Assembly (NCBI GenBank): GCA_964342815.1
Contig: CAYFHS010000002.1
Coordinates: 278,282-342,281 of the forward strand
Reading direction: 5' to 3'
Origin: an uncultured archaeon
Lineage (GTDB): Archaea > Thermoplasmatota > Penumbrarchaeia > JASLWR01
Length of the DNA: 64,000 nucleotides
The notes below the pieces were generated by a model. The model had not been told where the DNA came from. It did no database searches and was given only the letters and a program-made list of their open reading frames with translations. Position 1 is the stretch's first letter, and each line of letters opens with the position of its first letter. Position numbers and translations under genes: made by a program. Below are positions 1 to 63,319 of the stretch, piece by piece.

Positions 1-818
1 ATCATCCCGGGATCGGATGCGCTGCTTTCCAGCAAAACCGGGAAACCGAAAGGCCTGAATTTCTTTTTGATAGCGGATCTGCGTAGTATGGTAAGATTCC
101 TGAGTGCATCACCGAGTTGTTTTGGCCCAAAATCGAGTACGATATCTTCGACGCCTTTTCCCTTGACCTTCTCCGAGAGTTCCGCCAGTCCGTTCAGGTC
201 TTCGCAGTAGACTACCAGGGGTAATTTCAGTTCCGCCGCCAGACCCGCCATGGCTTCCCAGTTATCCTGGGTTGCACGATACAAAAGGGGTCTCGCACTC
301 ACGAGAGCGCGGGCTGCTCCTTCCATGGTTCCCGCATCATCCGCCATGAGTATCATGGGTTTTCCCGCAAGCGAATTGACCTTTTCCGCAGCCTCCTTGA
401 ACTTCCCCGCGTCTCCGGATGCACGCACCGCCACCATGTCCAGCTTCATTACCTGACCTATGCGGTCGAATTCGTAGGATTTTACACCGGCGGCCTTCCC
501 TTCCAGGTCGCCGTCATCGTCGGCTATTATCTGGCAAAGAAGCGTCGGATGGAAGAATTTCTTGTCGTGCCTGAACATTTCCGTCTCGTCACCCATCTCC
601 ACTTCAGCTCCGACGGGGCCGAACTTGACCTTCTTGATGGGTGGTGCCGCCGCTCCCTCGAGAGCCCCTCTTCCTGCATCGGATATGTCCGGACAGCTGT
701 CGAGCGAGGTCTTCTGGTTGGCGAGCTGCATGGCGAATGCCAGGCAGGTCGGAAAACCGCATTTGCCGCAGTTGGTTTTCGGTAACTGCATGAATATCTG
801 CATTGCATTAAGTGCCAT
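1..818 (-). CDS. acsC: Corrinoid iron-sulfur protein large (gamma) subunit, 3'-truncated at the window edge
   Basis: Not in the ORF track because it runs off the edge. Manual translation from ATG 818 gives MALNAMQIFMQLPKTNCGKCGFPTCLAFAMQLANQKTSLDSCP, the CxxCxxxxC...CP 4Fe-4S motif of AcsC/CdhE. The frame is open to position 1. Its ATG overlaps the acsD stop (TGATG). Confidence 0.93.
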   Translation of the reverse strand, partial: MALNAMQIFMQLPKTNCGKCGFPTCLAFAMQLANQKTSLDSCPDISDAGRGALEGAAAPPIKKVKFGPVGAEVEMGDETEMFRHDKKFFHPTLLCQIIADDDGDLEGKAAGVKSYEFDRIGQVMKLDMVAVRASGDAGKFKEAAEKVNSLAGKPMILMADDAGTMEGAARALVSARPLLYRATQDNWEAMAGLAAELKLPLVVYCEDLNGLAELSEKVKGKGVEDIVLDFGPKQLGDALRNLTILRRSAIKKKFRPFGFPVLLESSASDPGM

Positions 819-1777
819 CACTCACCACCCCCAGGGTAAAGTTCGTCAACAGCTTGTTTCATTCTCTGGAGAACGGAGGGGCTGTGCACTACCAGGAGTT
901 CCGCCCCGGCGACGAGAGCTGCCATGCCCGTGTCCGCTTCCCATTCGATGCCGCGTTTGGTTGGCTCTCCCAGACGGTCCCCGACCTCGTTCACATCGGG
1001 CGCAGCCCATGCAAGAGACAGGTCGCATATGATAGGTGCCTGCAGAAGGTTATCCCCCATGAGAGCAGCAAGCCGGATCCTCTCTATTATTGAATATGAA
1101 TATTCCAGACCGACCCCGAGAGCCGCCTGCAGCGGGTCCATGACAATGTTACCCAGATCAATACCGAAATCCTTCAGAAGGATCACTATCTGCTTTGCAA
1201 GGTTGATGTCGATGTTGCTGAAACCGATAACGCAGTGCCCGTTCGCCATGGAAGCAACGGCAATGGATTTGTACCAATCCTCCTCTGCCGCACCCAAAAG
1301 AAGCCGCTCCCCCTTTCCCGCCTCGGAAACCATTTCCATCAATTTCGTGTCGTTCTCATTATGTCCTGAACCATATACGATAAGAGGTACGCCAACAGCT
1401 TCCAATACTGCTTTCAGGGTATTGACAGCATCCTCGTTGCTGCCTCCATCTCCTTCGGGATTGGTGCTAACTAGCTTCAGACATAAGCCCTCGGCTCCAA
1501 ACTCAACGCATTTCTTTGCCCAGGAAACAGGGTCGTTGATGGCATCGCCGAATTCTTCCTTGACTGCTTCGGGAAAGTCCGCAGGGAGGCTGTCCAGCAC
1601 ATCCATGAAGAGCGCCGGTTTTCGTCCCGGACTTCCCTCGAAATTCAAATAAGGCAGAGCACTGGAACCGCCAATTATCACCTTGGATGTCCTTGTGCCC
1701 CCCTCCTCTTTTGTTGCCCCGATAGTGACCTCTCTTATACTTCCGCTCCATTTCTCTTTGGGTATTTCGAAAACCAT
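818..1777 (-). CDS. acsD: Corrinoid iron-sulfur protein small (delta) subunit
   Basis: 319 aa; N-terminus W-SGSIREVTIGAT..GGTR; TIM-barrel motifs ERLLLGAAEED, NIDINLAKQ, ERIRLAALMGD; lies between the ACS gene and acsC. Confidence 0.93.
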   Translation of the reverse strand: MVFEIPKEKWSGSIREVTIGATKEEGGTRTSKVIIGGSSALPYLNFEGSPGRKPALFMDVLDSLPADFPEAVKEEFGDAINDPVSWAKKCVEFGAEGLCLKLVSTNPEGDGGSNEDAVNTLKAVLEAVGVPLIVYGSGHNENDTKLMEMVSEAGKGERLLLGAAEEDWYKSIAVASMANGHCVIGFSNIDINLAKQIVILLKDFGIDLGNIVMDPLQAALGVGLEYSYSIIERIRLAALMGDNLLQAPIICDLSLAWAAPDVNEVGDRLGEPTKRGIEWEADTGMAALVAGAELLVVHSPSVLQRMKQAVDELYPGGGE

Positions 1778-1790
1778 TATTTCACGTCCT

Positions 1791-4700
1791 TTACATAAAT
1801 TCCATCAGGTTGGGAAGGGCAATGGCCGGATGACCGACCTCTATGCACCATTCCATGAGCTGCGCCGGGTCCGTTACATTTGTCTCATCCGCTATCTTGT
1901 CCAGGAAATTTGGTATCCCGAGTTCCTTTGCCCGCTGCTCCATGATCTCTCGCATATCTTCCTTCAATTGCTTGGGCATCCACATCAGTCGTTTGAAGCC
2001 GTCTTCCGCCCTGATAAACTTGGGACTCACAAGGAACTTTCTTCCTATACCGAGGAAACCGGGCGTCTGCTTACCGCCTCCAACGGAACCAGCGAGTGTG
2101 GTGAACTTCATGCCGATTGGCGTCATTCCACCGTATTCCCGGTTAACAACAATGAAACCCTGGGCATCCGCGGTCATTGCAACGATGCACTCGAAACACC
2201 CGCAGCTGGTCATTGGGAATTTCATCAAGCTGTATTGGTTGAATATCTCTATCTTTCCGTGACTGTGCTCCCTTACCGCCTGGTTGACCCCTTCCCACTG
2301 GCCCTTGTGTTCATCGATGACACCGGTCTTGGGAACCGGCTGATTTGGACCTGTGGGAGCGATCTCCTTGCTGGCCTTGGAATCCATCCAGTTGATGGCA
2401 CCGCACAGTCCAAGCCTCTCCGGGCTGATTATGCATACATGATCGGGGGCGAAGGACTGGCAAAGCGTGCAGGTGTAGAAGGTATCCACAGCCTCATCGG
2501 TGAGACCCGCCATCTTCTTGTCCCTTTCTTCGTAAGAGATCCAGGCTTCTTCTTTCCATTTTTCCAGCTCCACGGGATCGGTGACAATGGTTACCTGTAC
2601 CCTGTTAAGGATCGATCCGAACTCCTGATGCATCATGGAATAAAGGATGGTCCCGAAATCTTTGAAGCAGAACCCCTCTTTTACCGAAGCCTTGGACAGC
2701 CGTATCCATACCAGATTGCGTTGGCCCGTATGCCATCCGCCTTCGGCAAAGTTGATGAATTGATGTATCCGTCTTTCTAGAACAGGTTCGAAATCCTCCT
2801 GCATCTTCTTGCCGTATACCTCCACGAACATTCCCAGCGTTGTCGAGCCTCCTTCCTCCATCTCATCCAGGTCCGGTCCGATCAACTGTATCTTACCGTC
2901 CTCTACCTGGTCCGCCTCCCTCATTTTACACAACTCGAAACAGAGGGTCTTCGAGGCACCCCCGGCCTCAATTGCCATTCCGCTCCTTCGAACGGTCTCA
3001 CCCTCAAAGGCAGGACCGTAAGCTACAGGGATATCCACATCACCCATCTTTATGACCATGTCCCTGATCTCGATGGCGGTTGAAATGATCTGGTCATAGT
3101 CCTTCTGCATTACGTATTTCCCAGGTATCTCTTCGATATCCTGGTCGGTTATGGTAGGCGAGCCGTGGAAAAGGACGGCGAACTCCGCCGCGATCTTAAT
3201 GTCATCCAGGGGGCCCAGTTGAATAACCACTACTTTCGGACGCTTGGCCATGTATTCGTAGATTCCTTTTCGGTCTCCCGGTTCCTTTCCACCGAATATC
3301 ATTGCAGCGCGAATAGCGAAGCTTAGGCCGTGTATAGCCTGGGTGAACTCTCCAACGCAGAAAAGCATTCTGTCGAGCCCTTTCTTGTCCCCCACCTGGA
3401 TACCGGCTTCCTTGATCTGCTGGATAATGTCGAAGGTGGCGATGATCAGCATACCCTTGTTCTGCGCATTTCGGACTATCTTCTTCAATGCCTGAGGATC
3501 CTTTGCCTTACCCACCAGCACGATGGCTCCTGGGATGGTATCGTCCACGAAGCCGATCCCCAGTTCCCTGAGGACGACGTCGGAAATAAAACCGCTGTAA
3601 TTCGGGTGATCCTCGTAGGGGTTCTTGCCATCGATGTATTTTATTGCTTCAACTATCTCCGCTGCGATCATGGTCGCCTCGCCGGAAGCGATGGCGCTTT
3701 CTAGAGATATGTCGTCCTCCCTTATCCGGCGGCGGACCTTGCCAAGTATTACCGGTAACTGCCCCAGGCTCTCTACCTTTACGCCGTACCAGGCCATGAC
3801 ACAGGGAAGATAATATCCTGTATTGGGGTACTCGATCCTTGCGTTCCGTCCGAATCTGGTCATTGCGCGGTTCAGAAGGTATTCTGCATAACCGGTAGCG
3901 ATTACCGCACCGTCGATTGCCTTTCTGTAAATCTGTTCCTTCATGAGTTTAGGTCTTACGTCATCCCTGGTGGTGCCATCCCAGTATAACCCCTCAGTGT
4001 CTTCACCTATCCCAAGGCGCCACCGCCTGTATTTTATAATATTGTTCAGCTTTCTTGCTGCTTCTTGAGGGTCTTGTTCGAAAACGAAGAAACCTCCGTA
4101 AACGTCGTGGGCCGTAACCTCTGCGATCTCGGTCACCAGGGGACTTCCCTTGTGATAGGCATTGACCCCCACATGAGTAGGCCAACCCGTGGTCACGAGC
4201 CAACTCCCTATGGCTACCGCTTTCTCGCTCATGGCTTCCGGAGCGGAGCCGACGATTGGAAGCTCGGACATTTTCAGGTTCATCTTCTGGGCAAGTTTAC
4301 TAACCAAATTTTGTACCCGCGAATTGTCAACACAGGATCCCATGTGAATAATTAATGGTAATCCGCCTTCGATACCGGCCTTTTCACCCACTTCCTTCAA
4401 GAATCCCTTGAGGGAATCGCCGGCATATTCCGCTGCGGCTTCAGGTGTCAACAGTCCGTGTTTGGCATATGACTGGGCCGCACAGCCGGTGGCGAGCACA
4501 AGAACATTCTTCTTTGCAAGTTCGGTCGCCACAGTGTTATGGGCAAAATCGTGCTTGACTTTTGCATTGTTACAACCGGCAAGAAGTGCGATACCCTGCA
4601 GGGTGCCGTCATTTATCTTGTCAGCGAGATACTGGTATGGTCCGTCCGGGTTCATCATTGAAAATATCCGCTCAACCTCCTCCAGACTGAAACCTGCCAC

Positions 4701-5912
4701 CACCTTGTTCTTCACTTCCGGGATATGGATGATGCTCGGGTCACGGTTCTTGAAGGCATCCATTGCCACATTCAGGATCTCACGTGCGCATTCTTCCGCA
4801 TGCTCCTCGTGGAATTCGATATGCGTGTCGCCGGGAATCCTGGTTATCTCCTGGGTGGAGATCATCTGTGTATGGAAACATTGGGCCCACCAACCTTGAC
4901 TGGGTGCGATACATTGATAGTCCACCACCATGGCGTCGATAACCCCGGTGGCAATGGCCAGCTCTTGGATCATATAATTCGTTGCTATCGGGATCCCCCG
5001 CCTCATCAACAGCTCGTTGGCAGTACAGCATATACCGACAATGTTGAAGCCTCTTGCTCCGGCCGCTTCAGCCTCGCTCCTCATATCATCCGCCATATCG
5101 CAGATCACTTCACTGAGGATCGGATTATGGCCATGCACACAGATATTGACATGATCCTCTTTCAAGCTGCCGAGGTTCGCTTCCGATTCGATCAATTTGG
5201 GTGTGCCAAACAGGATATCCGATACTTCCGTACTGAAATTTTCTCCTGTCAGATCACCGAGCGCTGCCTTCAAACCACCAAAGATGAGCGGGACCGGGTC
5301 TGCGTCGCAACCCATTGTCGTCCTGTGCATCACCTCGCATATGCCCCGATCTATGTTCGTTGGAAGAACATTGTGCGAATCCGCGAGTTCGATCATACTG
5401 TCCGGCATCAGTTTCTTGAACCAGGTGCAAGCTTCATTTGTCTGCCGAGAAAAGTCATCGAAACCCATCGCTACCACTTCACGTGCTAATTCCAATAGGT
5501 CTTTCCCTTCCGTATCGATTCCTATCTCTCCTGCAACCCTTTTCAATTTTTCCTCATCCTTTATTCTGTAAGCTGGAGCATGTCCCTCTCCTACAGCATG
5601 TAAAGTATGGGCAATATGCCGACCGTGATCCGAATGCGCTGCAGCACCGGCCGCCGCCATTCGAATGATATTCCGGGCCACTATAGTGTAGTCCCTTGCA
5701 CCGCAAACACCTTTAGCAGGTTCTCCGCCATGCGGGTTTATCCGGCATGGCCCCTGGAGGCAGATCCTGCAACACAGACCCGTATCTCCGAATCCGCACT
5801 GCGGGGATTGTTTATCTAAACGGTCCCACAGAGTATCTAGACCTTTTTCTTTCGCTATTTCCATGAGCTCTTTTGCTACTGGATCGCTTGTTTTTTCTTC
5901 AATATCAACCAT
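1791..5912 (-). CDS. Fused anaerobic CO dehydrogenase (CooS/AcsA-type) and acetyl-CoA synthase (AcsB-type)
   Basis: 1373 aa. N-terminal ~630 aa carry the CODH ligands: CGFGDTGLCCRICLQGPC and GVCGA (D/B clusters), HGHNP, GICCT, VDYQC, LAGCNN, ATGC, HMGSCVDN (C cluster), SEKA. C-terminal ~730 aa carry the AcsB N-terminal domain (YPNTGYYLP) and A-cluster motifs CTLCQSFAPDHVC, GLCGA, TSCGCFEC. No stop codon between the halves. Confidence 0.95.
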   Translation of the reverse strand: MVDIEEKTSDPVAKELMEIAKEKGLDTLWDRLDKQSPQCGFGDTGLCCRICLQGPCRINPHGGEPAKGVCGARDYTIVARNIIRMAAAGAAAHSDHGRHIAHTLHAVGEGHAPAYRIKDEEKLKRVAGEIGIDTEGKDLLELAREVVAMGFDDFSRQTNEACTWFKKLMPDSMIELADSHNVLPTNIDRGICEVMHRTTMGCDADPVPLIFGGLKAALGDLTGENFSTEVSDILFGTPKLIESEANLGSLKEDHVNICVHGHNPILSEVICDMADDMRSEAEAAGARGFNIVGICCTANELLMRRGIPIATNYMIQELAIATGVIDAMVVDYQCIAPSQGWWAQCFHTQMISTQEITRIPGDTHIEFHEEHAEECAREILNVAMDAFKNRDPSIIHIPEVKNKVVAGFSLEEVERIFSMMNPDGPYQYLADKINDGTLQGIALLAGCNNAKVKHDFAHNTVATELAKKNVLVLATGCAAQSYAKHGLLTPEAAAEYAGDSLKGFLKEVGEKAGIEGGLPLIIHMGSCVDNSRVQNLVSKLAQKMNLKMSELPIVGSAPEAMSEKAVAIGSWLVTTGWPTHVGVNAYHKGSPLVTEIAEVTAHDVYGGFFVFEQDPQEAARKLNNIIKYRRWRLGIGEDTEGLYWDGTTRDDVRPKLMKEQIYRKAIDGAVIATGYAEYLLNRAMTRFGRNARIEYPNTGYYLPCVMAWYGVKVESLGQLPVILGKVRRRIREDDISLESAIASGEATMIAAEIVEAIKYIDGKNPYEDHPNYSGFISDVVLRELGIGFVDDTIPGAIVLVGKAKDPQALKKIVRNAQNKGMLIIATFDIIQQIKEAGIQVGDKKGLDRMLFCVGEFTQAIHGLSFAIRAAMIFGGKEPGDRKGIYEYMAKRPKVVVIQLGPLDDIKIAAEFAVLFHGSPTITDQDIEEIPGKYVMQKDYDQIISTAIEIRDMVIKMGDVDIPVAYGPAFEGETVRRSGMAIEAGGASKTLCFELCKMREADQVEDGKIQLIGPDLDEMEEGGSTTLGMFVEVYGKKMQEDFEPVLERRIHQFINFAEGGWHTGQRNLVWIRLSKASVKEGFCFKDFGTILYSMMHQEFGSILNRVQVTIVTDPVELEKWKEEAWISYEERDKKMAGLTDEAVDTFYTCTLCQSFAPDHVCIISPERLGLCGAINWMDSKASKEIAPTGPNQPVPKTGVIDEHKGQWEGVNQAVREHSHGKIEIFNQYSLMKFPMTSCGCFECIVAMTADAQGFIVVNREYGGMTPIGMKFTTLAGSVGGGKQTPGFLGIGRKFLVSPKFIRAEDGFKRLMWMPKQLKEDMREIMEQRAKELGIPNFLDKIADETNVTDPAQLMEWCIEVGHPAIALPNLMEFM

Positions 5913-5977: not shown

Positions 5978-6421
5978 TTAAGCATCGGTTTCGATCACTA
6001 ATAAAGCATCTACCGGGCATTGAGCAACGCAGGCAGGTGTTTCATCATCCAGGCACAGATCACATTTTACCGATTTTCCTTCGTCCGTCATCTGTATGGC
6101 GTCGAATGGACAGGCCTCAATACAGTTACCGCATCCGTCGCATATCTTCGCATCGATATACACGTAACCGTCATCCTGCTGGATTATGGCATTCTCGGGA
6201 CAGGCATCCACACATTTGGGTTTCTTGCAGAACACACACCTTATCATTTTCGGCTTTCCCTTTTTCTCGGTGATGGTGATGCGCGTAACCGGGCGGAGAC
6301 CCAATTGGGATATCTCGGAAGTACTGTTGGCTTCACTATGCACCAGGGCGCACGCGTTCTCGCAAGAATGGCATGTGACGCATAATTTGGCGTTGAAACG
6401 CACTTGCCTCAAAATATTCAC
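5978..6421 (-). CDS. CooF/DmsB-like multi-[4Fe-4S] ferredoxin, likely electron partner of the CODH
   Basis: Four Cys clusters (CVTCHSCENAC, CVFCKKPKCVDAC, CDGCGNCIEACP, KCDLC...ACVAQCP); first gene of the CODH/ACS run. Confidence 0.85.
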   Translation of the reverse strand: MNILRQVRFNAKLCVTCHSCENACALVHSEANSTSEISQLGLRPVTRITITEKKGKPKMIRCVFCKKPKCVDACPENAIIQQDDGYVYIDAKICDGCGNCIEACPFDAIQMTDEGKSVKCDLCLDDETPACVAQCPVDALLVIETDA

Positions 6422-13573: not shown

Positions 13574-16500
13574 ATGGCTCGAAAGTATGTTTTCCCGGCG
13601 GTGGCCCTGCTTCTGGTGGTACTCACCGGAGCAACCATTCGGGATGCACTTGATCTTGAGGTCTATAATCCCGGTTATGGGATGTCGGCCGTGTTTGTCA
13701 ATGGAACCACCCATGTTCTGGCCCAGGATTTTGTCAACATGAAATCAGACCTACGGTATTTTGAAATAGACCCCGAGGGAAAACTGGTGGAAAATCGGAT
13801 AGTGTACGAAGGAGAGGACGATTCCATTTCGCCTAAATTGACCGTATATGACGGCAGTCCATATTCAGCCTGGCTTATTGTGGAACCGGGGGAATCACAG
13901 GGGAAAATACAGTTCTCCGGTCTCAAAAGTCGTGGGCTTGATCCAGTATTGCTGGATGGTGACAACTGCAGGAGACTGCATATGGAAGCTGCTGCAAATA
14001 TTGTACTGGTGTATCACAGGGAAAAAGATATTTATGCAATTTCGGGGAAACCAAGTGATATTCTGGCAAAAAAAACATCTCCGGTCTTACTTTACAGCTC
14101 TGAAGGGGAAATCACCGCACTGGATTTTGCTGCCCACGGTAGCAGCATTTCTGTTTTCTGGTCGGAAAGGTCCGCTGGGTCGGAGTTAAATCAAACCCGC
14201 ATCATGATGCTGAACAGGAACCTGTCCAACCCGGATGATCTGTCCCAGCCAGAGGAATTACTAAACAGCGCTCGGGAAATAAATTCAATGAAATGCGATG
14301 CTAGCTCAGAGAGGTTCTGCTTAAGCTATGCTGAGTATATTTCCGGAGATGAGGAATTTTCCAGCATCCAGCTCTGGGCATTGGAGTCCTCCCTTTTTGG
14401 AAATTTCAGCTCCCCGGTGAAAATAGGTTCAGGGAAGAGCGCTTCCATTCCACGTTTTGTCAATTATGATGGAAATCAAGCCTGGATTGTATGGTCGGAT
14501 AATGAAGTTTACAGAAGAATGCTGGATGAGGGGGAAAGAGGTGAAGACCTGAGTCGAAGGAATTTTGAGATTTATTCGTGCAGCATTGTAAACGAGAGCA
14601 GTTCCGTCCCGGTAATGCTGACCTCTGCAGACTCCGAGCGAAGTATAGGTGTTGTCCTTGTTACTAATAATGATCGAACCATTATATGGATGGACCTGGC
14701 GGACGGCTATAACCTGTATATGAGCCCGTGGCACGGGGCTGCAATCGGAAAATCCACCGATCTGACCGGAAATGAAACACCCGGTATAGGTTCTATGATG
14801 GCAATGTTGATGATTCCCCTGATAATCGGCATGGTTGCCGTCTTCGTATGGAAGTTCAGGGCACAGAAAAAAGCCCAGGTAAAGGGTCCCGAAGAGCTGA
14901 GGAAAACAGTAGAGCTGGAGTTTGTAAAGTTCGTTGACCTGAGAAGCTATGTCTTTCTCAAATGGTTCTTCTTAATCGCCGGCGGGACCTTTATGATTCT
15001 GTTCATGGTTCTTGGAATAATGTCTGATGAATATTTGGAACCCGGGTTCCGCATATTTCCCCTCGGCATATTCCTCAATCTCATGGCTTTAATAATGGGA
15101 GCTTCCGTATTGTACAAACTGAGCGATGAAAAGGATGTTAGTCAATATCACAGGATCGGCATATACCTCACGTTGGGGGCGTTGGTACTTGCTGCAGTAG
15201 GCGTAGGGGCATTCGGTGCCGTTCAGTATCTAGGGTGGAAACCGATAGGTGCTGCTACCTTTTCAATTCACGTAAGTTCCATCCTTTCTTTTTCCCTGGC
15301 AATGGCAGGCCCCAGCGTAATTATTGCAGGGGCTACAGGGAGAAAAGGTCCTCTCTTAGCAGCGGTAGCCTATGTGATGGTACCCATCAATCTGATTTAC
15401 GGATTGTGGCAATATTCCGAGAATTCTTTCTTTCCCTATATCAGGTGCCCGGCTTATTATCTGAGCTCTACAAATCTGATGCCGATTATGGTAATCACAA
15501 TGATGGTGTCCATCTTTTTCACCATGATGCTGATCAAGTCACTTGGCCGGGAAAAGGTAAAGAAGCTCAAGGATTGGACGGCAGATGACCTGAGTATTCT
15601 GAGACGGAACGCCCTTATCTTTGTGGGGTTGATGACAGTTATGTTTTTAGGATTGGAGATTTTTATGTTCTGGGACTTAGGTTTTCAATTTGAGATAGAT
15701 ACCACCATGTTGGTCTTTGGTGCCCTTTTCGTAGTTATGACCCTGATGTTGCACAAGATGATGACCATAAGAATGACCCCGGAACAGGCAAAAAAGGCCA
15801 TGGCCGACTCGCCTTCAAATTTTATTTTTGGGGGTTATGCAATGCCTCTAATTACACTGATAATGTCGTTTGTGTGCGGTATGCTCTTTGGCATTATCGG
15901 AGGATTGATCTTTGTGGGATTTTTTTTCTATCAGGAATACTCTTTTGATCGTTTTTTAAGACAAAAAGGATTTGAATATATAAAGCAAGCTCCAAAGGTC
16001 ATTGAGGATATCAAGAAGGAGGATAAGGCGGATAGGATAATAATCGACAAGGGGAGGCGGTTTACCAGAGTCCAGGTGGCGAAGTATATAAACAGGAACG
16101 AGAGGATGATCCTCACATTGCATGGAATACTGTATATCGTAACGGCGTTGATGGCAAGCGGAGGCCTGAAACATCCAGCGGCCGATGGAATTGGCGGAAT
16201 CATCCGGCTGGTTTTGGTTTCGGCAGGCCTTCTCATTCAAACGGGTCTGGTAATTTATCTGCTCGTAAACTTTCGAAGAATTGGCCAGGCTCGATCCTTG
16301 ACCGAACTTATTCAGTACAATGGTAAAACCGGTATGGAGGTGATGGGATACGTGGTGATATTCTTTTTAACCTTACTGGGAATGGACAAGATCGGTTTTA
16401 TTTCCATCTCTTCTCTGGTAATTCTCGGTGGGGTCATTACTCTTATGAGCATTTACAAAGTGAAGAAAAAGAACGTTTCTCTTCCTAATGGGGCATATCT

Positions 16501-17974
16501 GGTCAAGGGCCCCCATGCTCTGGGACTCAAGAGGTATGTGGATTCCCGCGAAGCCGCAAAAAAGGCCAGGGAAAAGGGTATAGTGTCTCTTATCGGAGAT
16601 GAGGTCATTCCGGTTCATTCCTCCAGGGATAGCGGAAAAACACGGCTCGATGGGTCTGACTCCTCTTCTGAAACCCCTCCGGCAGATACGGAAAAACCTC
16701 GAAAGATAGGGGAGGGGGAGCATGGAGCGGTACTGTGCCAGGAACCCAGCGACATGTTTGAAAAGAGGAAAAAGCAGTCCCTTTATGTGGCAATATTTAT
16801 TATGGCAATGCCCTTTATTTTCGGGGGAATTCTCGGCTTTCAGCTGTCCATTATGGTTGAGAGCATCAACAAGACTGTGTTGTGTATCGCCCCCTCATTG
16901 ATCCTTGTTCCCATATTTCTGGGGCTCGGCGTCACCATGGTGAAGAGACGAGAAAAACTGAAGCCCATAACATTTCACGATTACGGGATCTCTTTATCAA
17001 ATCTCCTGGGCAAAGAGATGTTCATCCCATACGGTTTTATAGAAAAATTCAATATCTCCGCAGGACCGAAGGGTAGAATTTTCCAGGGGGTCCAGAAAGG
17101 ATATCCCCTGAATATACTCGTATGGCCCGAGCTGGAGGCCCTCATACCTTCGCTGGAGAAACGCTTTGGGAATCCCGACTATATACCTACAGCCAAAAAG
17201 GCACCCGTTTCACATAGAGGAAAGGAAACCTTTGTCTATATATGCTCCCTCCCGTTGGGTTTTCTATTTTCAGCTCTGATAGCCGTACAAGGAGATATGG
17301 ATAATTTTTGGCCCAACGCTCTGGGAATGATGCCGCTGGGTGTTTCCATTTCCCTTGTCCTGTCCACCAGGGTCGCTGGCCTGATCCTTAAGAACAGGCA
17401 GTACAAACCTGACCCCAGACCGTTCTTTGCGGTTCTAGTGGTGGGTTTGGTGCTGGGGATCCCGGCCTGGTTCATCATTCCACCGGGCAACTTCATAATG
17501 TCGAATAATGATGAGCACCAAATGGAAATGGATGACTTTCTTTCATCCATGACAAGTACCGGATTGATCAACGATACTGAATTATTACTTGAAGATAGTC
17601 TGGTGGTTGATGATGAACTGTCCATGGTGAATGTTACGCTTGAGCTGCAGTGCACAGTTGGCGGTCAATATGCCGTCTATGTGGGTGAGAACGCAAGGTT
17701 GACGCTGATCAATTGTACTGTAAAGGGCCGGAGTCGAGATCTGGGTGCCGCCTTTGAGGTACACGGGGAACTGGAAGCCACTGATACTACCTTTTATTGG
17801 ATCTTCGGGACCACCGATCAAACAAATGGCCAGGGAGGCATCGAGTTTTACAGCTCATATGGGAATTTCCAAAGCTGCACATTCCGGGATATGCTGACCA
17901 ATGCTGTTATGGAGTTCGATTCGGAAATTTTCTTTAACGACTGTGTTTTTGAGAATGTGGTGACGAATGCGTAG
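13574..17974 (+). CDS. Very large polytopic membrane protein: signal peptide, ~400-aa extracellular domain, many TM helices, C-terminal right-handed beta-helix; probably continues into 17977-18351 across a frameshift
   Basis: 1466-aa ORF with hydrophobic stretches; the C-terminus has beta-helix repeats (LTLINCTV, FQSCTFRD, FNDCVFEN) that end abruptly. Confidence 0.75.
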   Translation: MARKYVFPAVALLLVVLTGATIRDALDLEVYNPGYGMSAVFVNGTTHVLAQDFVNMKSDLRYFEIDPEGKLVENRIVYEGEDDSISPKLTVYDGSPYSAWLIVEPGESQGKIQFSGLKSRGLDPVLLDGDNCRRLHMEAAANIVLVYHREKDIYAISGKPSDILAKKTSPVLLYSSEGEITALDFAAHGSSISVFWSERSAGSELNQTRIMMLNRNLSNPDDLSQPEELLNSAREINSMKCDASSERFCLSYAEYISGDEEFSSIQLWALESSLFGNFSSPVKIGSGKSASIPRFVNYDGNQAWIVWSDNEVYRRMLDEGERGEDLSRRNFEIYSCSIVNESSSVPVMLTSADSERSIGVVLVTNNDRTIIWMDLADGYNLYMSPWHGAAIGKSTDLTGNETPGIGSMMAMLMIPLIIGMVAVFVWKFRAQKKAQVKGPEELRKTVELEFVKFVDLRSYVFLKWFFLIAGGTFMILFMVLGIMSDEYLEPGFRIFPLGIFLNLMALIMGASVLYKLSDEKDVSQYHRIGIYLTLGALVLAAVGVGAFGAVQYLGWKPIGAATFSIHVSSILSFSLAMAGPSVIIAGATGRKGPLLAAVAYVMVPINLIYGLWQYSENSFFPYIRCPAYYLSSTNLMPIMVITMMVSIFFTMMLIKSLGREKVKKLKDWTADDLSILRRNALIFVGLMTVMFLGLEIFMFWDLGFQFEIDTTMLVFGALFVVMTLMLHKMMTIRMTPEQAKKAMADSPSNFIFGGYAMPLITLIMSFVCGMLFGIIGGLIFVGFFFYQEYSFDRFLRQKGFEYIKQAPKVIEDIKKEDKADRIIIDKGRRFTRVQVAKYINRNERMILTLHGILYIVTALMASGGLKHPAADGIGGIIRLVLVSAGLLIQTGLVIYLLVNFRRIGQARSLTELIQYNGKTGMEVMGYVVIFFLTLLGMDKIGFISISSLVILGGVITLMSIYKVKKKNVSLPNGAYLVKGPHALGLKRYVDSREAAKKAREKGIVSLIGDEVIPVHSSRDSGKTRLDGSDSSSETPPADTEKPRKIGEGEHGAVLCQEPSDMFEKRKKQSLYVAIFIMAMPFIFGGILGFQLSIMVESINKTVLCIAPSLILVPIFLGLGVTMVKRREKLKPITFHDYGISLSNLLGKEMFIPYGFIEKFNISAGPKGRIFQGVQKGYPLNILVWPELEALIPSLEKRFGNPDYIPTAKKAPVSHRGKETFVYICSLPLGFLFSALIAVQGDMDNFWPNALGMMPLGVSISLVLSTRVAGLILKNRQYKPDPRPFFAVLVVGLVLGIPAWFIIPPGNFIMSNNDEHQMEMDDFLSSMTSTGLINDTELLLEDSLVVDDELSMVNVTLELQCTVGGQYAVYVGENARLTLINCTVKGRSRDLGAAFEVHGELEATDTTFYWIFGTTDQTNGQGGIEFYSSYGNFQSCTFRDMLTNAVMEFDSEIFFNDCVFENVVTNA

Positions 17975-30579: not shown

Positions 30580-33500
30580 ATGTATTCCAAAAAAGCTGTT
30601 ACTCTGGCTTTGACTTTGCTTCTTCTCTCTTCCTATGCAATCATCGATTTTGATCAAACTTCAACAGAGAACAGGGACGCGCGCCTTTCTTCTAACAACG
30701 AACTGAGTAAAGATGAAACCTACAGAACCAGGTTTGCTGGGGGAAATGGGACCGAAGATGATCCATATCAGATATCTAATGTCACGCAGTTGCAGGATAT
30801 GAATTTGGACCTGGCTGCGAGTTATATATTGGTTAATGATATTGATGCATCCGAGACGAGAGGATGGAATGACGGGAGGGGATTTTCTCCTATAGCGAAA
30901 GATATTGGGGAGGAAGTAAATCAATTCACTGGAAGCCTTAATGGAAATGGATGTCATATCACTGATTTATATATCAACAGGCCGTCTGAGGACAATATCG
31001 GTCTATTTTGTGATATCAGTAATAGTGGACATATTAGCAATGTCAGTTTGATTGGTAGCAAGGTAAACGGTGATCGAAATGTTGGTGGGCTGGTGGGATT
31101 CAGTTGGTTTGGTACCATAAAGAATTGCTATGCAACAGGAGATATGAGCGGAGGATGGTATGTCGGTGGACTAGTGGGTGAAAATGGAGGTACGGTCCTG
31201 AACTGTTCTGCAACAGGAAATCTCACCAGTGATTCTAGAAGTGGTGGGTTAGTGGGTTACAATAAAGGCACTATACAGAACTGCTATGCAACAGGATATG
31301 TGAATGGGAAATGGAATATCGGGGGACTTGTGGGTTTTAACGCAGGTCCATTAGAGAACTGCTATGCAACAGGATATGTGATAGGAGAAGAAGGTATCGG
31401 CGGATTGGTGGGCTGGATTGTTTCCGAAGGACCGATAAGGAACTGCTATGCAACAAGTAATGTGACTGGTGATCAGAATATTGGTGGATTGGTGGGATTA
31501 AACGGTGGCGCGGTCTGGAATTCTTATGCAACAGGAAATGTTACCGGAGAAACAGAGTATGTTGGCGGGCTGGTGGGAAAAAATAAAGGCCCAATACATA
31601 ACAGCTATGCAATAGGAAATGTGAGCGCTCATCGCACCGTCGGTGGACTGGTCGGTATGAACAAAGATGCTTCGATCGAAAACTGCACGTCAATAGTAAA
31701 CATTAATGGAAGTTGGAATATCGGTGGGCTTATAGGTAATAACCAGTTCGGAACGGTACAAAACTGCACTACAGCGAGCAATGTAAGTGGGGACAACTAT
31801 ATCGGTGGACTGATCGGAAGCAGTTCTGGCACGATACAGAACTGCTCTTCCATAGGTAATGTGAAGGGAGAAGAGAATGTTGCCGGATTGGTTGGATTCA
31901 ATTCTGGCACGGTACAGAAATGCTCTGCAACAGGTAATGTGAGCGGGAATTTGAGTGTCGGCGGACTCATAGGTAATAACCAGTTTGGATCACTATATGA
32001 CTGCTATACCATCGGAAATATCAGCGGTATACGGAATGTTGGTGGACTCGTTGGACAACTCAATTTAAGCTACAATTTCCCGTGGAAAAGCTTCAACTCA
32101 TTTTATTGTATCAATTATACTACTGTTAACAACAAGCATTATGTTACGCCTTATGGCATCTATAAAAACCAGTTCGAGGATTGGATAAGTAATGGAAAAT
32201 CACTTGATATAGATGATTATCTTTCCAAAATACCAGGTACAAATAACTATAATATTTCTAGTGTTTCTGATATGAAAAAAATGTTACCATTCGCTTCATT
32301 TCCTTATTACAAGTTCAAACAAACTTCTGATATCAACCTGGCATCTGAGACGGAGTTTTATATACCCATTCTAAAAAGCGAGTACAATGGAAATGGTCAT
32401 TCGATATCGCATTTGGAAATTACATATTATAATAATGATAATTTAGGTATGTTTGGCACAATCTATGTTGGAGGATCTGTAGTTAATGTTTCCATAATCA
32501 ATAGTCAAGTAAGTGGTAATGATCTAATCGGAGGACTCTCAGGATACAATCAAGGTGTGATATTAAACTGCTCCACAGCTGGAAATACCATAGGTATTGA
32601 TAGTGTGGGTGGACTGGTAGGATTCAACTCGGCGACGATCCAGAACTGCTATGCAACAGGAGATATGAGCGGAGGATGGTATGTCGGTGGGTTAGTAGGA
32701 TTCAATCGTGACAAAGTGAATAACTCATATGCTACTGGAGAAGTGATTGGAGATTATGAAGTTGGAGGATTGGTGGGATTGAGTGATTCCGAAGGATCGA
32801 TAAGGAATTGCTATGCAACAGGTAATGTTACGGGTGTTCTGAATCTTGGAGGATTGGTGGGATTTGTTACCCATGGATCGATAAAGAACTGCTATGCAAC
32901 AGGTAATGTGATTGGAGATTTTGTGATTGGAGGATTGGTGGGATTTGTTACCTATGGATCGATAACGAACTGCTACACAACAGGCTATGTTACAGGGGAT
33001 GTGGATGTTGGTGGGCTAGTGGGAGACAATTTGATGAGCATTGTAGAGAACTGTTTCTGGGATATTGATACTTCTAGTCAGCCAAACAGCTTCGGCGGTA
33101 AAGGTAAAACTACAATAGAAATGATGACAAAAAGTACTTTCACAGAGGCGGGTTGGGATTTCGAAAGTATCTGGGCCATAAATGAATATGTTGATTACCC
33201 CCATCTTCAGTGGGAACGAAGAATAAAAATTGAGCCCGATGACTACGATAATGATAGTATCCCTGACATCATCGACGATTTTCCGACTGATCCTGCTGCT
33301 TCCATTGATATGGATAGTGACGGCTCACCAGATCAATGGAATCCCGGAATGAACGAAACAAATTCAACTACGGGATTACATCTGGACGCATTTCCCCTGG
33401 ACCCTGCAGCATCTCTGGATTCCGACAAAGATGGTATGCCGGACAAGTGGAATCCTGGGATGGACCAGAGTGATTCAACCTCGTATCCCCCATTAGAACT

Positions 33501-33720
33501 CGATATTTACCCAAACGATCCGGAGAACAAGTCACCTGGAGACAATAGCACTGAGACAACGACCGATAGCAGTTCAAAAACCTGGATTTGGGTGTCAGTG
33601 GCCGTAATGATCGTATTATTGGTCGCAGTTATTTTTGCCGTAGTGATCCGAAAGAAACGAAAGCCACAAGAAAAAGAAGAAAAAAATGATCTTGGCAGGG
33701 TTGAACCTGATGAGAAATAG
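30580..33720 (+). CDS. Cell-surface protein with two GLUG-repeat beta-helix modules, thrombospondin type-3-like Ca-binding repeats and a C-terminal TM anchor
   Basis: Many (V/I)GGLVG-N-G-I-NCYATG-V repeats; GNGTEDDPYQI cap; D-x-D-x-DG-x-PD repeats; TM followed by RKKRK. Confidence 0.88.
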   Translation: MYSKKAVTLALTLLLLSSYAIIDFDQTSTENRDARLSSNNELSKDETYRTRFAGGNGTEDDPYQISNVTQLQDMNLDLAASYILVNDIDASETRGWNDGRGFSPIAKDIGEEVNQFTGSLNGNGCHITDLYINRPSEDNIGLFCDISNSGHISNVSLIGSKVNGDRNVGGLVGFSWFGTIKNCYATGDMSGGWYVGGLVGENGGTVLNCSATGNLTSDSRSGGLVGYNKGTIQNCYATGYVNGKWNIGGLVGFNAGPLENCYATGYVIGEEGIGGLVGWIVSEGPIRNCYATSNVTGDQNIGGLVGLNGGAVWNSYATGNVTGETEYVGGLVGKNKGPIHNSYAIGNVSAHRTVGGLVGMNKDASIENCTSIVNINGSWNIGGLIGNNQFGTVQNCTTASNVSGDNYIGGLIGSSSGTIQNCSSIGNVKGEENVAGLVGFNSGTVQKCSATGNVSGNLSVGGLIGNNQFGSLYDCYTIGNISGIRNVGGLVGQLNLSYNFPWKSFNSFYCINYTTVNNKHYVTPYGIYKNQFEDWISNGKSLDIDDYLSKIPGTNNYNISSVSDMKKMLPFASFPYYKFKQTSDINLASETEFYIPILKSEYNGNGHSISHLEITYYNNDNLGMFGTIYVGGSVVNVSIINSQVSGNDLIGGLSGYNQGVILNCSTAGNTIGIDSVGGLVGFNSATIQNCYATGDMSGGWYVGGLVGFNRDKVNNSYATGEVIGDYEVGGLVGLSDSEGSIRNCYATGNVTGVLNLGGLVGFVTHGSIKNCYATGNVIGDFVIGGLVGFVTYGSITNCYTTGYVTGDVDVGGLVGDNLMSIVENCFWDIDTSSQPNSFGGKGKTTIEMMTKSTFTEAGWDFESIWAINEYVDYPHLQWERRIKIEPDDYDNDSIPDIIDDFPTDPAASIDMDSDGSPDQWNPGMNETNSTTGLHLDAFPLDPAASLDSDKDGMPDKWNPGMDQSDSTSYPPLELDIYPNDPENKSPGDNSTETTTDSSSKTWIWVSVAVMIVLLVAVIFAVVIRKKRKPQEKEEKNDLGRVEPDEK

Positions 33721-35291: not shown

Positions 35292-35618
35292 TTATTTGCT
35301 TTTCTTAGCCTTATCCTTTAATCGCTTCGTGCGGGCCTTGGCATTGAATCCCGTTGCTATATCGAGAAATTTATTGTATTTTTTCCTGGAGTCCAGCCCG
35401 GCTTCGATGTCCACATCAGGGTCCATTATGGTATCCACCATAAGCGTGCTCTTATCCTTCACCCAGGCGATTAGAGGCGAGAGGGCCCCATAGGTCACGT
35501 AGCATTTCCCATCTTTCAGCGAAACATGTGCCTCGCCAAACACATCACTCAGAACGTCGAATAACTTCGTCCCCTCGATATTCTTGTACTTTCCCCGTTT
35601 AATGTCCTGTTCCATCAT
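35292..35618 (-). CDS. Conserved archaeal hypothetical protein (DUF5611-like)
   Basis: VTYGAL, TLMVDTIMD, KYNKFLDIATGFNAKAR-K pattern; ATG 35618 follows a GGTGAT RBS. Confidence 0.65.
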   Translation of the reverse strand: MMEQDIKRGKYKNIEGTKLFDVLSDVFGEAHVSLKDGKCYVTYGALSPLIAWVKDKSTLMVDTIMDPDVDIEAGLDSRKKYNKFLDIATGFNAKARTKRLKDKAKKSK

Positions 35619-35769
35619 TTTTATCACCCTGGTAGTTCGTAGTCCGCTGGACGGTAAACCTTCATCTTGTGATTTATATTTTTGGGATATACCACAGGTT
35701 AAATTAAATAACATTTGTGAAATAATTGTTTGTCAGTATATCGTTCACAATTTGCACGGTGGGAAGAAA

Positions 35770-38700
35770 ATGAAATTGAATGATACTAATACAAAATGTT
35801 TAGCATTCATAATTATTATATTATTATTTGCAAATATCAACCTGTTATGGGATCGAGATGATAAAGAACCCGATGGATCTGAGCCCTCGGTGCAGGTAAA
35901 GGAGCATCGCCGGGAACATATTACCGGGACTCCGTCCGCTTCCTATTCTACAGGGGCTACTCGGGCAGTACGTAATTATCTTGAGGACCTAAACGCACAG
36001 TACAACTGGATCGACATAAGTCAGACCGGTACTTCGATATTCCTGGACGACGACGATTACCGGGAGGTCAACATGGGTTTGACCTTCAATTTCTACGACA
36101 CACCTTTCACCAGCTGCCGTATCAGTTCCAACGGAATGATCGTTTTCGGTAACACCAGCGATCCCTGGGAATACGAAAACGTACAATTTCCGTCAAACGT
36201 TTATTCTTATTACATGGCCCCGTTATGGGATGACCTATATCCTCCCGAAGGTGGAACGATATGCTACAAGAAACTTACGAATCCCGAACGTTTCGTGGTA
36301 TCCTATCTGGGAGTCCCCCATATCGACGATTGGGGGGGAGGAGGAATAGGTAACACATTTCAGGTGATAATGGATGCAAGTACAGGTATGATAACTTTCA
36401 ATTATCAGAACTTATGGGGCCAGAACAGTCCCACCGTGGGCCTCAACATGGGTGATGGAACCCATTTCAATATGCCCTTTTTCAACCAGAACCCTCCCGG
36501 TCTGCCCCGCTCACTTAAGTTTTTCATAACTATACCTCCCGTACCTGATGGTATGGCGCTTCGGAGCGCCAACGGTTACCGGAACATATGTTACACGGAA
36601 TTCCAACCGTACACCCTGGGGATCAACCTCACCACATACGAGGGCCTGAACGATATTTCCGATCTGAAGATAAAACTTGATTACAACACAACCAACATAA
36701 CGCTTGGTTTCAACGGTACATACAACAAATTTTACAAGAATGGCGACCCGGAGGACCATATCCACCTTCTCGATACGTCGTCATACAGGAATGACGGAAT
36801 CGATAAATGGTGGTTGTATTTCAACGTTACTTTCAACTTCACTTTTCCCCATGAAGATAAGATCGACTGCCTTGTTAGAACGTCAGGGAAATGCGGAATC
36901 TCACTCGATTACTGGTTCTCAAACGTCTTCAGGGTGGAAAACGACCTTATGTTCCAGGGAATTCCCTCATTCGAGGGTGAATTTCAGGGTGTGTTAAATG
37001 AGAACGATTGGATACGCGGAGGGGAGAAGATATCGGTATCCGGTCTCAGGGTTGTATATCAGGATTCGGCAGACGTCGTTCCCGCCGATGAACATTATGA
37101 CATCAAGGTCTTCGATAAAGCGGGAAACCACTGGTGGGACAATGAATCCAGTGGTGAAGAGGTCGCTCTGAATATTACTGCCCGTGATGAATCCGATACG
37201 GGCGAGGAATATACCATTACAATCGAAAACATACCTGACGCGGGAGTGTGCGCTATGGATTTGATATTTCCAATAAAAATTGATGCCGATGATCCTGAGC
37301 CACCACGCAATCTGCTTTGCCACCATAAGAATTTCAAAAATGATGAAACGGAATATACCAATGGGACCACGGCCTTCGTTACATGGGATGCCGTGGAGGA
37401 TACTCATTCGGGCCTGAAGGGATATTACCTATCACAGTTGGACAACTCGGGAACGCAGAATGGAACCTTCATTGAAGATACCATAAAAGCTGTTGACAAC
37501 CTCAAGGAAGGGCCGGCCCCCGTTTATGTCTGGTGCATAGACAATGTGGGGAACATAGGTGAAGCCTCTTTCTCTGAGATAATGGTTGACCGGACAGGAC
37601 CGGTATTCACAAATCTGACGCCTGAGGACGGTGCCTGGCACTCTAGCAGGAACGTTGAATTCTCTGTGGAGATATGGGACCGGAACGGCTCGGGAGTGGA
37701 CGGTACAACGGTGGAGTACGCATTGTCAACCGAGGGTCCATTCGACTATTCCTTCTGGGTGCCAGTGTGGGTTGAACCGGGTGCAGAGTTTGTCAACCCT
37801 TCACTTGACTATAAATTCCAGGAAGGGGCCGACAATTACGTGAAATGGCGGGCAAAGGACATGGCAGGAAACGGATTCGTGGAATCCCCGCCTGTGAACA
37901 TAAAGATAGATACCACCTACATAGATTTCGCCGAGGAGCTCACGGAGCAGGTCGCTTGGTACAAAAACAGGGTAGTCACCACCGGTATTTACGTAAGAGA
38001 CCTGGGCAGCGGTATTAATTTAAGTTCTTTTCAGGTAAGAATATCCACCGAAGGCTCCACAGCTTTCGGGGAATGGATGCCCGTGGATGTAAGAAATATT
38101 TCCGAGGCGGATATTGAGAATTACCGGGCCGGGTCTACGGGGCTGTCAACTGATGACTGGGACGATGAGGGGGCGTACAGGATAACGGCCACCTTTGCGT
38201 ACGCAGAGGGAGTCGACAACTACATCATGTTCCGGGGTACCGATCTGGTTGGAAATCCATTTGGCTCATCGGAGAAGTTCAACCTTAAGATAGATACCTC
38301 TCCGGTATATTTCGGCCTTTTCTCGCCTGGGGAGGACGAGTATGCCAACAAACAGGAAGTGGAATGTTTCATTGAGATCATGGATGATGGGTCCGGGGTG
38401 GACCCTGCAACAGTTGAATATTCCGTTGCCATGGGGGCGGGGGGCGACAGTTTAAGTTTTGGAGCATGGAAAACGGTCCTCTACGTTTCTCCGGGCAAAC
38501 CGACCCAGGTTTCATTGGACATCGAATTTGATTGGGGGCGGAACAACTTTATAAGGTGGAGGGCGGACGACATTATCGGTTCCGGCCACAACATTTCACC
38601 TTCGTACAGGATTTGGGTCAACTCCGATCCGGAACCGGAAATATCCTCACCCAAGGACGGTTTTAGTTCGTTCGATGACGTGGAAATACTGTTCGATGCT

Positions 38701-42180: not shown

Positions 42181-42280
42181 TTCGATGCACTTGAATCGTA
42201 ATCCCAATGTCGTATAATAATCTATTTATATGCATAAAATATTGTTTGTACATTCTTTTTCTTTCCCCGGAAGTGGTCAT

Positions 42281-55599: not shown

Positions 55600-55788
55600 C
55601 GTGTTACACCAAGCTCGATTGAGTGACCGGAAACGGTTTTTTACTATACTATCGGAGATAGATAAACGTTTTGTTGCCAATCTCACATTGACCTTACCCA
55701 TCCCCGTTCCATTCCATAATTTCTGAAATGTTCATATAAACAAAAGAGAAGGCAAAATATTAATCCCTATTTCCCCACTCCCCCCCCG

Positions 55789-63234: not shown

Positions 63235-63319
63235 TAAGGGTATAGGGCCCAAAATACCAGTATTGGGTGCCAATGATTACCAAATCATATGCAATCTGGA
63301 CGCCAGTTGAGTCGATAAG

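Follow-up and report, generated by a model that had tools for sequence, protein, structure and literature searches.

The closest described systems in which carbon monoxide dehydrogenase (CODH) and acetyl-CoA synthase (ACS) act together are the bacterial AcsA2-AcsB2 complex (M. thermoacetica, PDB 1MJG and 1OAO; C. hydrogenoformans, 7ZKJ) and the archaeal acetyl-CoA decarbonylase/synthase (ACDS) CdhABCDE of methanogens (PDB 9C0S, 3CF4). Fused forms have been listed before: Supplementary Table 1 of Inoue et al. 2019 (Front Microbiol, PMC6344411) contains two fused 'Euryarchaeota archaeon RBG' CODHs, and its main text states only that fused CODHs were classified. A 2020 preprint describes CODH/ACS and the Wood-Ljungdahl pathway in the order UBA10834, basal to Methanomassiliicoccales, with the fusion unmentioned. 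In the literature no main-text account of the fusion was found beyond the 2019 supplementary table, and no biochemical or structural study was found. Here we analyse a CODH-ACS fusion gene in a stretch of 64,000 nucleotides (the window) from an uncultured Thermoplasmatota archaeon (GenBank assembly GCA_964342815.1, contig CAYFHS010000002.1). The window makes up the final 64 kb of a contig of 342,281 bp in a genome of 4.35 Mb and 116 contigs, with a completeness of 88.9% and a contamination of 3.2%. Coordinates given without a contig or locus name are those of the window, in which the gene and its parts are arranged as follows.

1791..5912, minus strand: CODH-ACS fusion open reading frame (ORF), 1373 codons from an ATG start, uninterrupted by stop codons
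4011..5912, minus strand: CODH domain (residues 1-634), assigned as a complete CooS/AcsA-type, clade-F Ni-CODH
3942..4010, minus strand: junction or linker, residues 635-657, GIGEDTEGLYWDGTTRDDVRPKL
3033..3941, minus strand: AcsB domain A1, residues about 658-960, N-terminal CODH-docking domain with the tunnel
1791..3032, minus strand: AcsB domains A2 and A3, which carry the A-cluster (residues 961-1373; stop codon included)

The two catalytic modules are alike to those of bacterial AcsA2-AcsB2, with about 47-49% identity. The cluster ligands, the three-domain AcsB with its A1 domain, the tunnel alanines and the equivalent of F512 are shared, and so are the partners AcsCD, AcsE, CooC, RACo and the tetrahydrofolate (THF) methyl branch. 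Unlike the bacterial enzyme, the fusion is one polypeptide instead of two, its host is an archaeon and its accessory genes are scattered rather than clustered; a linker of 23 residues stands where the Neomoorella type has about 40 residues in free tails. With the ACDS of methanogens the fusion has in common the overall chemistry and a homologous A-cluster module, but it contains no CdhA-type CODH, carries the A1 domain that CdhC is without, and is accompanied by a methyl donor pathway based on THF, not on tetrahydromethanopterin (H4MPT). The entries of Inoue et al. (PMC6344411) show the same domain order, a clade F CODH, a full active-site motif and an origin from archaeal metagenome-assembled genomes (MAGs). 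By their description they are set apart by an extra N-terminal Cys3 motif, whereas the fusion protein has no cysteine upstream of C39, and the fusion is a member of another subgroup, whose linker is longer and contains a YWxGxT motif.

Split Thermoplasmata clusters (e.g. GCA_046761045.1, L139) are the closest unfused relatives, with 63-65% identity in AcsB and 54-61% in CODH. The L139 genes are ordered cooT-cooC-tautomerase-ferredoxin-cooS-acsB-acsD-acsC, with RACo and a second CooC opposite. The order ferredoxin-CODH-ACS-AcsD-AcsC and the YWxGxT motif in the CODH tail are common to L139 and the fusion. Unlike the fusion, L139 has two separate genes in different frames with a 4-base overlap, and its accessory genes, CooT, CooC and RACo among them, sit in the same cluster.

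Profile and structure-based searches agreed on the domain composition of the fusion. Pfam models matched the prismane/CODH domain at residues 46-616 (model positions 1-513 of 513), CODH_A_N (PF18537) at 679-760, CdhC at 961-1114 and ACS_CODH_B_C at 1127-1370. The NCBIfam model TIGR01702 for the anaerobic CODH catalytic subunit CooS covered residues 9-635 with 702.5 bits against a cut-off of 478, spanning model positions 2-621 of 621, and NF040764 for the AcsB type, the three-domain alpha/beta ACS, covered residues 666-1370 with 932 bits against a cut-off of 800, over the entire model (1-705 of 705). Sequence searches of the PDB related residues 6-639 to AcsA/CooS chains and residues 652-1370 to the AcsB of C. 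hydrogenoformans and M. thermoacetica, in both cases with E values of about 1e-200 to 1e-229. The AcsB chain aligned over its full length (positions 11-728 of 730), and the A1 fragments 9fu4_B and 6yua_A aligned to residues 652-972. R. rubrum CooS aligned end to end (9-638 of 639) with a match that stops at residue 634, which implies a complete CODH followed by about 23 linker residues and then a complete AcsB. By this arrangement, with CODH and then AcsB in one frame and kept in relatives, the protein belongs with the natural single-chain CODH-ACS of archaea listed by Inoue et al. 2019. The cdhC model reached 423 bits over residues 959-1364. The archaeal cdhA model TIGR00314 gave only 54 bits, far below its cut-off of 781, and A1, which is lacking in CdhC, is present, so that the protein does not fall into the ACDS family. 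The placement in clade F is supported by the same cdhA score and by the CODH tree, in which the CODH half is sister to the Bacillota AcsA clade; the published fused relatives are likewise assigned to clade F. On these profile and tree data the CODH half is assigned to the CooS/AcsA kind and the ACS half to the three-domain AcsB kind, and neither to CdhA or CdhC, in line with the bacterial-type fusion named in an initial annotation of the window made from the sequence alone.

All ligands described in that annotation could be located by alignment. The D-cluster ligands C39 and C47, the B-cluster ligands C48, C51, C56 and C70 and the C-cluster ligands H262, C296, C334, C447, C477 and C527 (fusion numbering) are present, and the acid-base pair His93/Lys563 of CODH corresponds to H93 and K564. 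An alignment of 42 fused homologues showed the D-, B- and C-cluster ligands, H93 and K564 to be invariant or nearly so. In the ACS half, the A-cluster residues C1148, C1151, C1160, C1170 and C1237-G1238-C1239 are present. For AcsB the reference was the Neomoorella stamsii protein of 729 amino acids (aa), equal in size to the Moorella enzyme; the four single cysteines align with its C506, C509, C518 and C528, C1237-G1238-C1239 with C595-G596-C597, and F1154 with F512. The tunnel alanines are kept as A751, A866 and A909, corresponding to the Moorella-type A110, A222 and A265. For the A-cluster, F512 and alanines 110, 222 and 265, residue numbers and roles are those of the Moorella enzyme.

An AlphaFold2 model of residues 1-962 (CODH, linker and A1) was built as a monomer, for this part of the 1373 residues, on the 42-sequence alignment. 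It reached a mean predicted local distance difference test score (pLDDT) of 87.2 and a predicted template modelling score of 0.91. The modelled CODH part superimposed on CODH-II with a template modelling (TM) score of 0.97 and a root-mean-square deviation of 1.6 A. Residues 633-657 around the linker form a non-helical ordered strap in the model (pLDDT 88-92). No solved chain covers both the CODH and the A1 parts, the query-normalised TM score being at most 0.65.

The linker quoted in the initial annotation (RRWRLGIGEDTEGLYWDGTTRDDVRP) corresponds to residues 629-654. In the subgroup of the window the linker stretch reads ...YRRWRLGIGEDTEGLYWDGTTRDDVRPKLMKEQIY..., while in the split archaeal relatives the CODH ends with ...RRWKLGMDEDKEVLYWTGETAAEVFAEKPEVATNGGERE and AcsB begins with MTRVSQTELF. 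The YWxGxT motif of the linker is the same motif that is found in the C-terminal tail of the separate CODH of these split relatives. Comparison of these sequences indicates that the linker arose from the tail of CODH, shortened by about 15 residues and continued directly by the head of AcsB, and that the junction is a deletion across the stop and start codons with no inserted spacer. Linker length and sequence differ among the fused subgroups, always in frame; in other fused subgroups the linker is 5-11 residues shorter and is without the YWxGxT motif, which would fit later indels or separate fusions.

The fusion gene lies in a short operon, the other members of which are listed below.

5978..6421, minus strand: CooF-like polyferredoxin of 147 aa with 16 cysteines (Fer4_11/Fer4_7), the first gene of the operon
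818..1777, minus strand: AcsD, small subunit of the corrinoid iron-sulfur protein (CoFeSP), 319 aa (PF03599; NF003376, 339 bits against a cut-off of 280)
1..821, minus strand: AcsC, large subunit of CoFeSP, with FeS and CdhD domains (NF003195, 525 bits against a cut-off of 306)

The order on the minus strand is CooF-like ferredoxin, fusion, AcsD and AcsC, followed by unrelated genes. AcsC has 441 aa in total, of which the N-terminal 273 codons are in the window and about 500 bases lie beyond its start. No acsE, cooC or RACo gene is present in the operon, and no acs gene follows AcsC. A ferredoxin of 110-150 aa stands immediately upstream of the fused or split gene in the relatives L136, L138 and L139, and the CooF-like ferredoxin is a likely candidate for the electron partner of the CODH D-cluster. 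The archaeal host proposed in the initial annotation is borne out by an archaeal large subunit (23S) rRNA gene, which begins at 63314 and with which the contig of the fusion ends, and by the closest genome, Thermoplasmatota archaeon ETNP2_MAG_1 of the same genus, whose fusion ORF is 93% identical.

Elsewhere in the window, a tubulin/FtsZ-family protein of 481 aa is encoded at 54256-55701 (minus strand), with its GTPase domain starting at residue 179 after a long N-terminal extension. Two giant ORFs of 1466 and 1408 aa, without any Pfam match, occupy 13574-17974 and 35584-39810 (both plus strand). Large surface-protein genes are found around them, with GLUG repeats (30580-33720), a PQQ propeller with Big_5 (42230-46060) and DUF2341 (56862-61772).

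Other Wood-Ljungdahl pathway genes were identified in the rest of the genome. AcsE is encoded on contig C23 (NF005719, 279 bits against a cut-off of 259; match to the methyltransferase MeTr in the PDB with E 4e-71). A CooC gene adjoins folC and shares 59% identity with a relative's CooC gene that neighbours cooS, and a RACo/AcsV gene is present. The methyl branch is represented by formyl-THF ligase (FTHFS) and FolD genes, by MetF-MetV-MvhD genes with two HdrA-like genes and by a NuoE/NuoF/FdhA cluster (a HydABC-type formate dehydrogenase) together with FdhD; ATP-grasp genes of the ADP-forming acetyl-CoA synthetase type are present as well. CooC, RACo, AcsE, FTHFS, FolD, MetFV-MvhD-HdrA and the HydABC-type formate dehydrogenase are dispersed over seven places (C1:93078-93848, C22:44772-45551, C23:58949-59725, C5:64350-66062, C71:2556-3074, C1:248376-255998 and C13:4178-8278). 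In the relatives L136, L139 and L140 the same accessory and methyl-branch genes mostly flank the CODH/ACS genes. The H4MPT markers Mch and Ftr and the methanogenesis marker McrA were not found in this 88.9% complete genome. The search suggested in the initial annotation thus returned AcsE and a THF methyl branch, and with FTHFS, FolD, MetF, AcsE, CoFeSP and formate dehydrogenase all present, the THF-type Wood-Ljungdahl pathway appears complete from gene content, with no sign of methanogenesis, within the limits of that completeness. CdhA and an additional CODH or ACS were likewise not found; no search was aimed at CdhB on its own. Besides the fusion gene there is a single prismane-family gene, which was considered as a second CODH and rejected, being a hybrid-cluster protein.

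In L136:8001-12110 (P0037) and in P0039 a fused subgroup of 1369 aa was seen, in L136 within a compact Wood-Ljungdahl supercluster of MetF, HdrA/MvhD, MetV, FdhD, ferredoxin, fusion, AcsD, AcsC, AcsE, CooC and NuoE-NuoF-FdhA. The AcsB half of this subgroup is placed outside the main archaeal clade (FastTree) and its CODH half inside.

What was observed here, an unbroken ORF with its domains and ligands, its operon setting, a set of pathway genes and conservation among relatives, is as a whole best explained by a working single-chain bifunctional CODH/ACS, and we regard it as very likely that the gene encodes one. Its dimer, the use of its tunnel, the direction of its flux and any benefit of its tether are considered here by homology. 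Two chains most likely pair via their CODH domains, which would rebuild the bacterial alpha2-beta2 shape with a shared D-cluster at the dimer interface. Electrons would pass from the CooF-like ferredoxin through the D- and B-clusters to the C-cluster, where CO2 would be reduced to CO, and the CO would reach the Ni-Ni-[4Fe4S] A-cluster by way of a tunnel inside AcsB A1. At this cluster CO, CoA and a methyl group from the corrinoid protein AcsCD would be combined to acetyl-CoA, in a reversible reaction, with AcsE loading AcsCD from methyl-THF and RACo keeping AcsCD active. The split bacterial CODH/ACS is already a tight 1:1 complex. The linker would tie each A1 to one CODH domain, resulting in a fixed 1:1 ratio, equal amounts and proximity, and it is a reasonable inference that the tether would fix the stoichiometry of the CO channel, as the initial annotation had proposed. 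The fusion would close the THF-type Wood-Ljungdahl pathway in a non-methanogenic Thermoplasmatota archaeon, and its most likely role is that of an electron sink (acetogenesis via ADP-forming acetyl-CoA synthetase) or of CO2 assimilation.

Some points weigh against this picture. The accessory genes are unlinked to the CODH/ACS operon. Since the genome is incomplete, the failure to find the H4MPT genes and mcrA is no proof of their absence. Acetogenesis, assimilation and acetate oxidation would all be compatible with the sequence, which does not reveal the direction of flux, and in the monomer model a docking of A1 on the CODH of its own chain appears indistinguishable from docking on that of the partner chain.

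The fused frame recurs among relatives. In another assembly, a genome of the same genus is collinear with the window over about 14.7 kb, from dnaJ/dnaK through the entire acs operon. Seven of 40 relatives' genomes carry the fusion as open frames of 1373-1393 codons with 69-93% identity; its occurrence is patchy over the families of the class, one well-sampled family having none in 24 genomes. In a collection of 5.8 billion proteins, at least 120 protein clusters (at 90% identity) combine all four domains in 1300-1400 aa, and when clustered at 50% the fused proteins are reduced to what is essentially a single representative. The named clusters are all archaeal (Thermoplasmata, Thermoplasmatota, Methanomassiliicoccales, 'Methanobacteriota', 'Halobacteriota' or Bathyarchaeia MAGs). 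Among 121 loci from species-representative genomes all fused copies are archaeal, while the bacterial loci are split or contain acsB alone. The remark in the initial annotation that fused forms had been reported in some bacteria therefore finds no counterpart among these loci, and the published fused entries are archaeal too. The usual form of the enzyme in a large uncultured archaeal group is thus the fused one. It is genuine and, with its listing in 2019, not new.

Database entries can obscure this distribution. P0122 is recorded as an 'AcsB' of 730 aa with 71% identity, yet its DNA is one open frame of about 1378 codons. It corresponds to L138:3057-7191 (CP070629.1) in a complete Thermoplasmata genome of 3.58 Mb, where an AcsB of 730 aa is annotated and the 2 kb upstream are left geneless, so that the fusion is under-annotated. 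P0122 was therefore rejected as a genuine unfused protein inside the fused clade, this one case having been checked at the DNA level, and apparent unfused database proteins in that clade were for this reason not counted as fissions. In several fused or stand-alone archaeal AcsB genes (L027:5971-11658, P0102, P0145, P0203, P0206, P0214 and P0216) an intein/homing-endonuclease insert (PF14528, PF14890) was observed, giving ORFs of up to about 1896 codons.

Three other explanations of the locus were weighed against an old and working fusion. An assembly or sequencing artefact, in which a lost base merged overlapping cooS and acsB genes, would need little: in the split archaeal relatives the two genes, which lie in different frames, share 4 bases (L139, 5995-8004 and 8001-10157; L140), one indel could fuse them, and frameshifts do exist in some MAG copies (L026, L053, L065, L096). 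However, the fused frame recurs with the same flanking genes in the independently assembled genome of the same genus, in the seven relatives' genomes and in the protein clusters, and the loss of about 15 residues from the linker relative to the split forms points to a deletion rather than a one-base slip. An artefact is hardly credible on this evidence, and the single uninterrupted frame of 1373 aa noted in the initial annotation holds. The CODH part could also be a decaying remnant, with the ACS part alone being functional, as in some Methanomassiliicoccales relatives in which an intact AcsB is joined to a shrunken, ligand-free CODH (P0171, P0174, P0177, P0207, L066, L069). The retention of every D-, B- and C-cluster ligand and of H93 and K564, in a CODH that aligns over its full length with R. 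rubrum CooS, makes this highly improbable; CooC is encoded in the genome, and no other CODH was found that could supply CO.

The initial annotation had further proposed that the archaeon acquired a bacterial carbonyl branch. If the acs operon had come horizontally from bacteria in recent times, into this archaeon or into close ancestors of it, such a transfer would agree with an architecture first described in bacteria and with an operon G+C content of 0.50-0.53, slightly above the window mean, although other conserved genes of the window are equally high. It would also agree with the CODH half being only a little closer to archaeal split CODHs (54-68%) than to the Bacillota CooS/AcsA (52-54%), and with the midpoint-rooted CODH tree, in which the archaeal clade and its sister Bacillota AcsA clade are nested in other bacterial CODHs. 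Against this stands that the nearest unfused relatives of both halves are archaeal, with up to 65% identity for AcsB and up to 61% for CODH; that the nearest relatives of each half, at least 100, are archaeal where named; that the first bacterial-labelled AcsB among the matches listed is 50% identical and the bacterial loci 42-49%; and that the gene is common to relatives of the genus and of several families of the class (69-93%) and syntenic within the genus. The AcsB tree (163 rows) sets the named archaeal sequences apart from the bacteria as a clade (100%), in which the split archaeal group branches first, followed by a clade of 78 mostly fused rows (95%). The CODH tree (150 rows) likewise unites these archaeal sequences in a single clade (97%). 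With the two halves concatenated, under LG+G4 as well as under a C20 mixture model, a 99% branch has the sampled bacteria all on the same side. Both halves are thus archaeal in placement, at branches of 99-100% from the sampled bacteria, and a recent transfer is unlikely. The family-wide sharing, the synteny and the separate archaeal clade imply that any interdomain transfer was old, and on these sequences we consider the fusion gene an old archaeal possession and not a recent bacterial import. The trees do not settle an archaea-first or bacteria-first direction of such an old transfer, if there was any. A 2026 preprint (PMC13370988) likewise places AcsB in several phyla of archaea without settling the root.

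How often the fusion arose is less clear-cut. The best concatenated trees require two changes of the fused state, while a single clade of all fused forms was not rejected by an approximately unbiased test (p 0.415); in the C20 mixture tree the split group stands beside the subgroup of the window, weakly (70%). In Methanomassiliicoccales-type relatives (P0171, P0174, P0177, P0175, P0207, P0209 and P0239; loci L066:3113-6076, L069:3107-6100, L070:2122-5085 and L079:3401-6010) AcsB is intact with all six A-cluster cysteines, and the N-terminal CODH part is shrunken and without cluster ligands. Their lengths form a series of about 1150, 1035, 1006, 990 and then 711-755 residues. These forms nest inside the fused clade of the AcsB tree, which suggests that the decay of CODH followed the fusion. 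We lean, with some reserve, towards a history in which an old fusion of overlapping cooS and acsB genes originated between one and three times in ancestors of several Thermoplasmatota orders, with part of the CODH tail kept as the linker, and in which the CODH domain then decayed stepwise in methanogenic Methanomassiliicoccales, with AcsB-only genes as the end point. If this history is true, the family is a natural series on ACS without CODH and on the contribution of the tether.

The present analysis adds the genome-wide reconstruction of the pathway for this organism, the origin of the linker, a demonstration at the DNA level that 'split' entries, where they occur sporadically, can be artefacts, and the Methanomassiliicoccales series in which the CODH domain decays. 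CODH/ACS is among the oldest carbon-fixing enzymes and a target for the biocatalysis of CO2 and CO. A natural single chain with a fixed 1:1 stoichiometry is a ready-made construct on which CO channelling, assembly and the large movements of the ACS domains could be studied, and it might be easier to express. Whether the three-domain AcsB deserves the label 'bacterial' is debated, and the finding has a bearing on this. For the ecology of these archaea, the fusion marks a THF-type, non-methanogenic Wood-Ljungdahl pathway in marine Thermoplasmatota, of the oxygen-minimum-zone type if judged by the ETNP label of the nearest genome.

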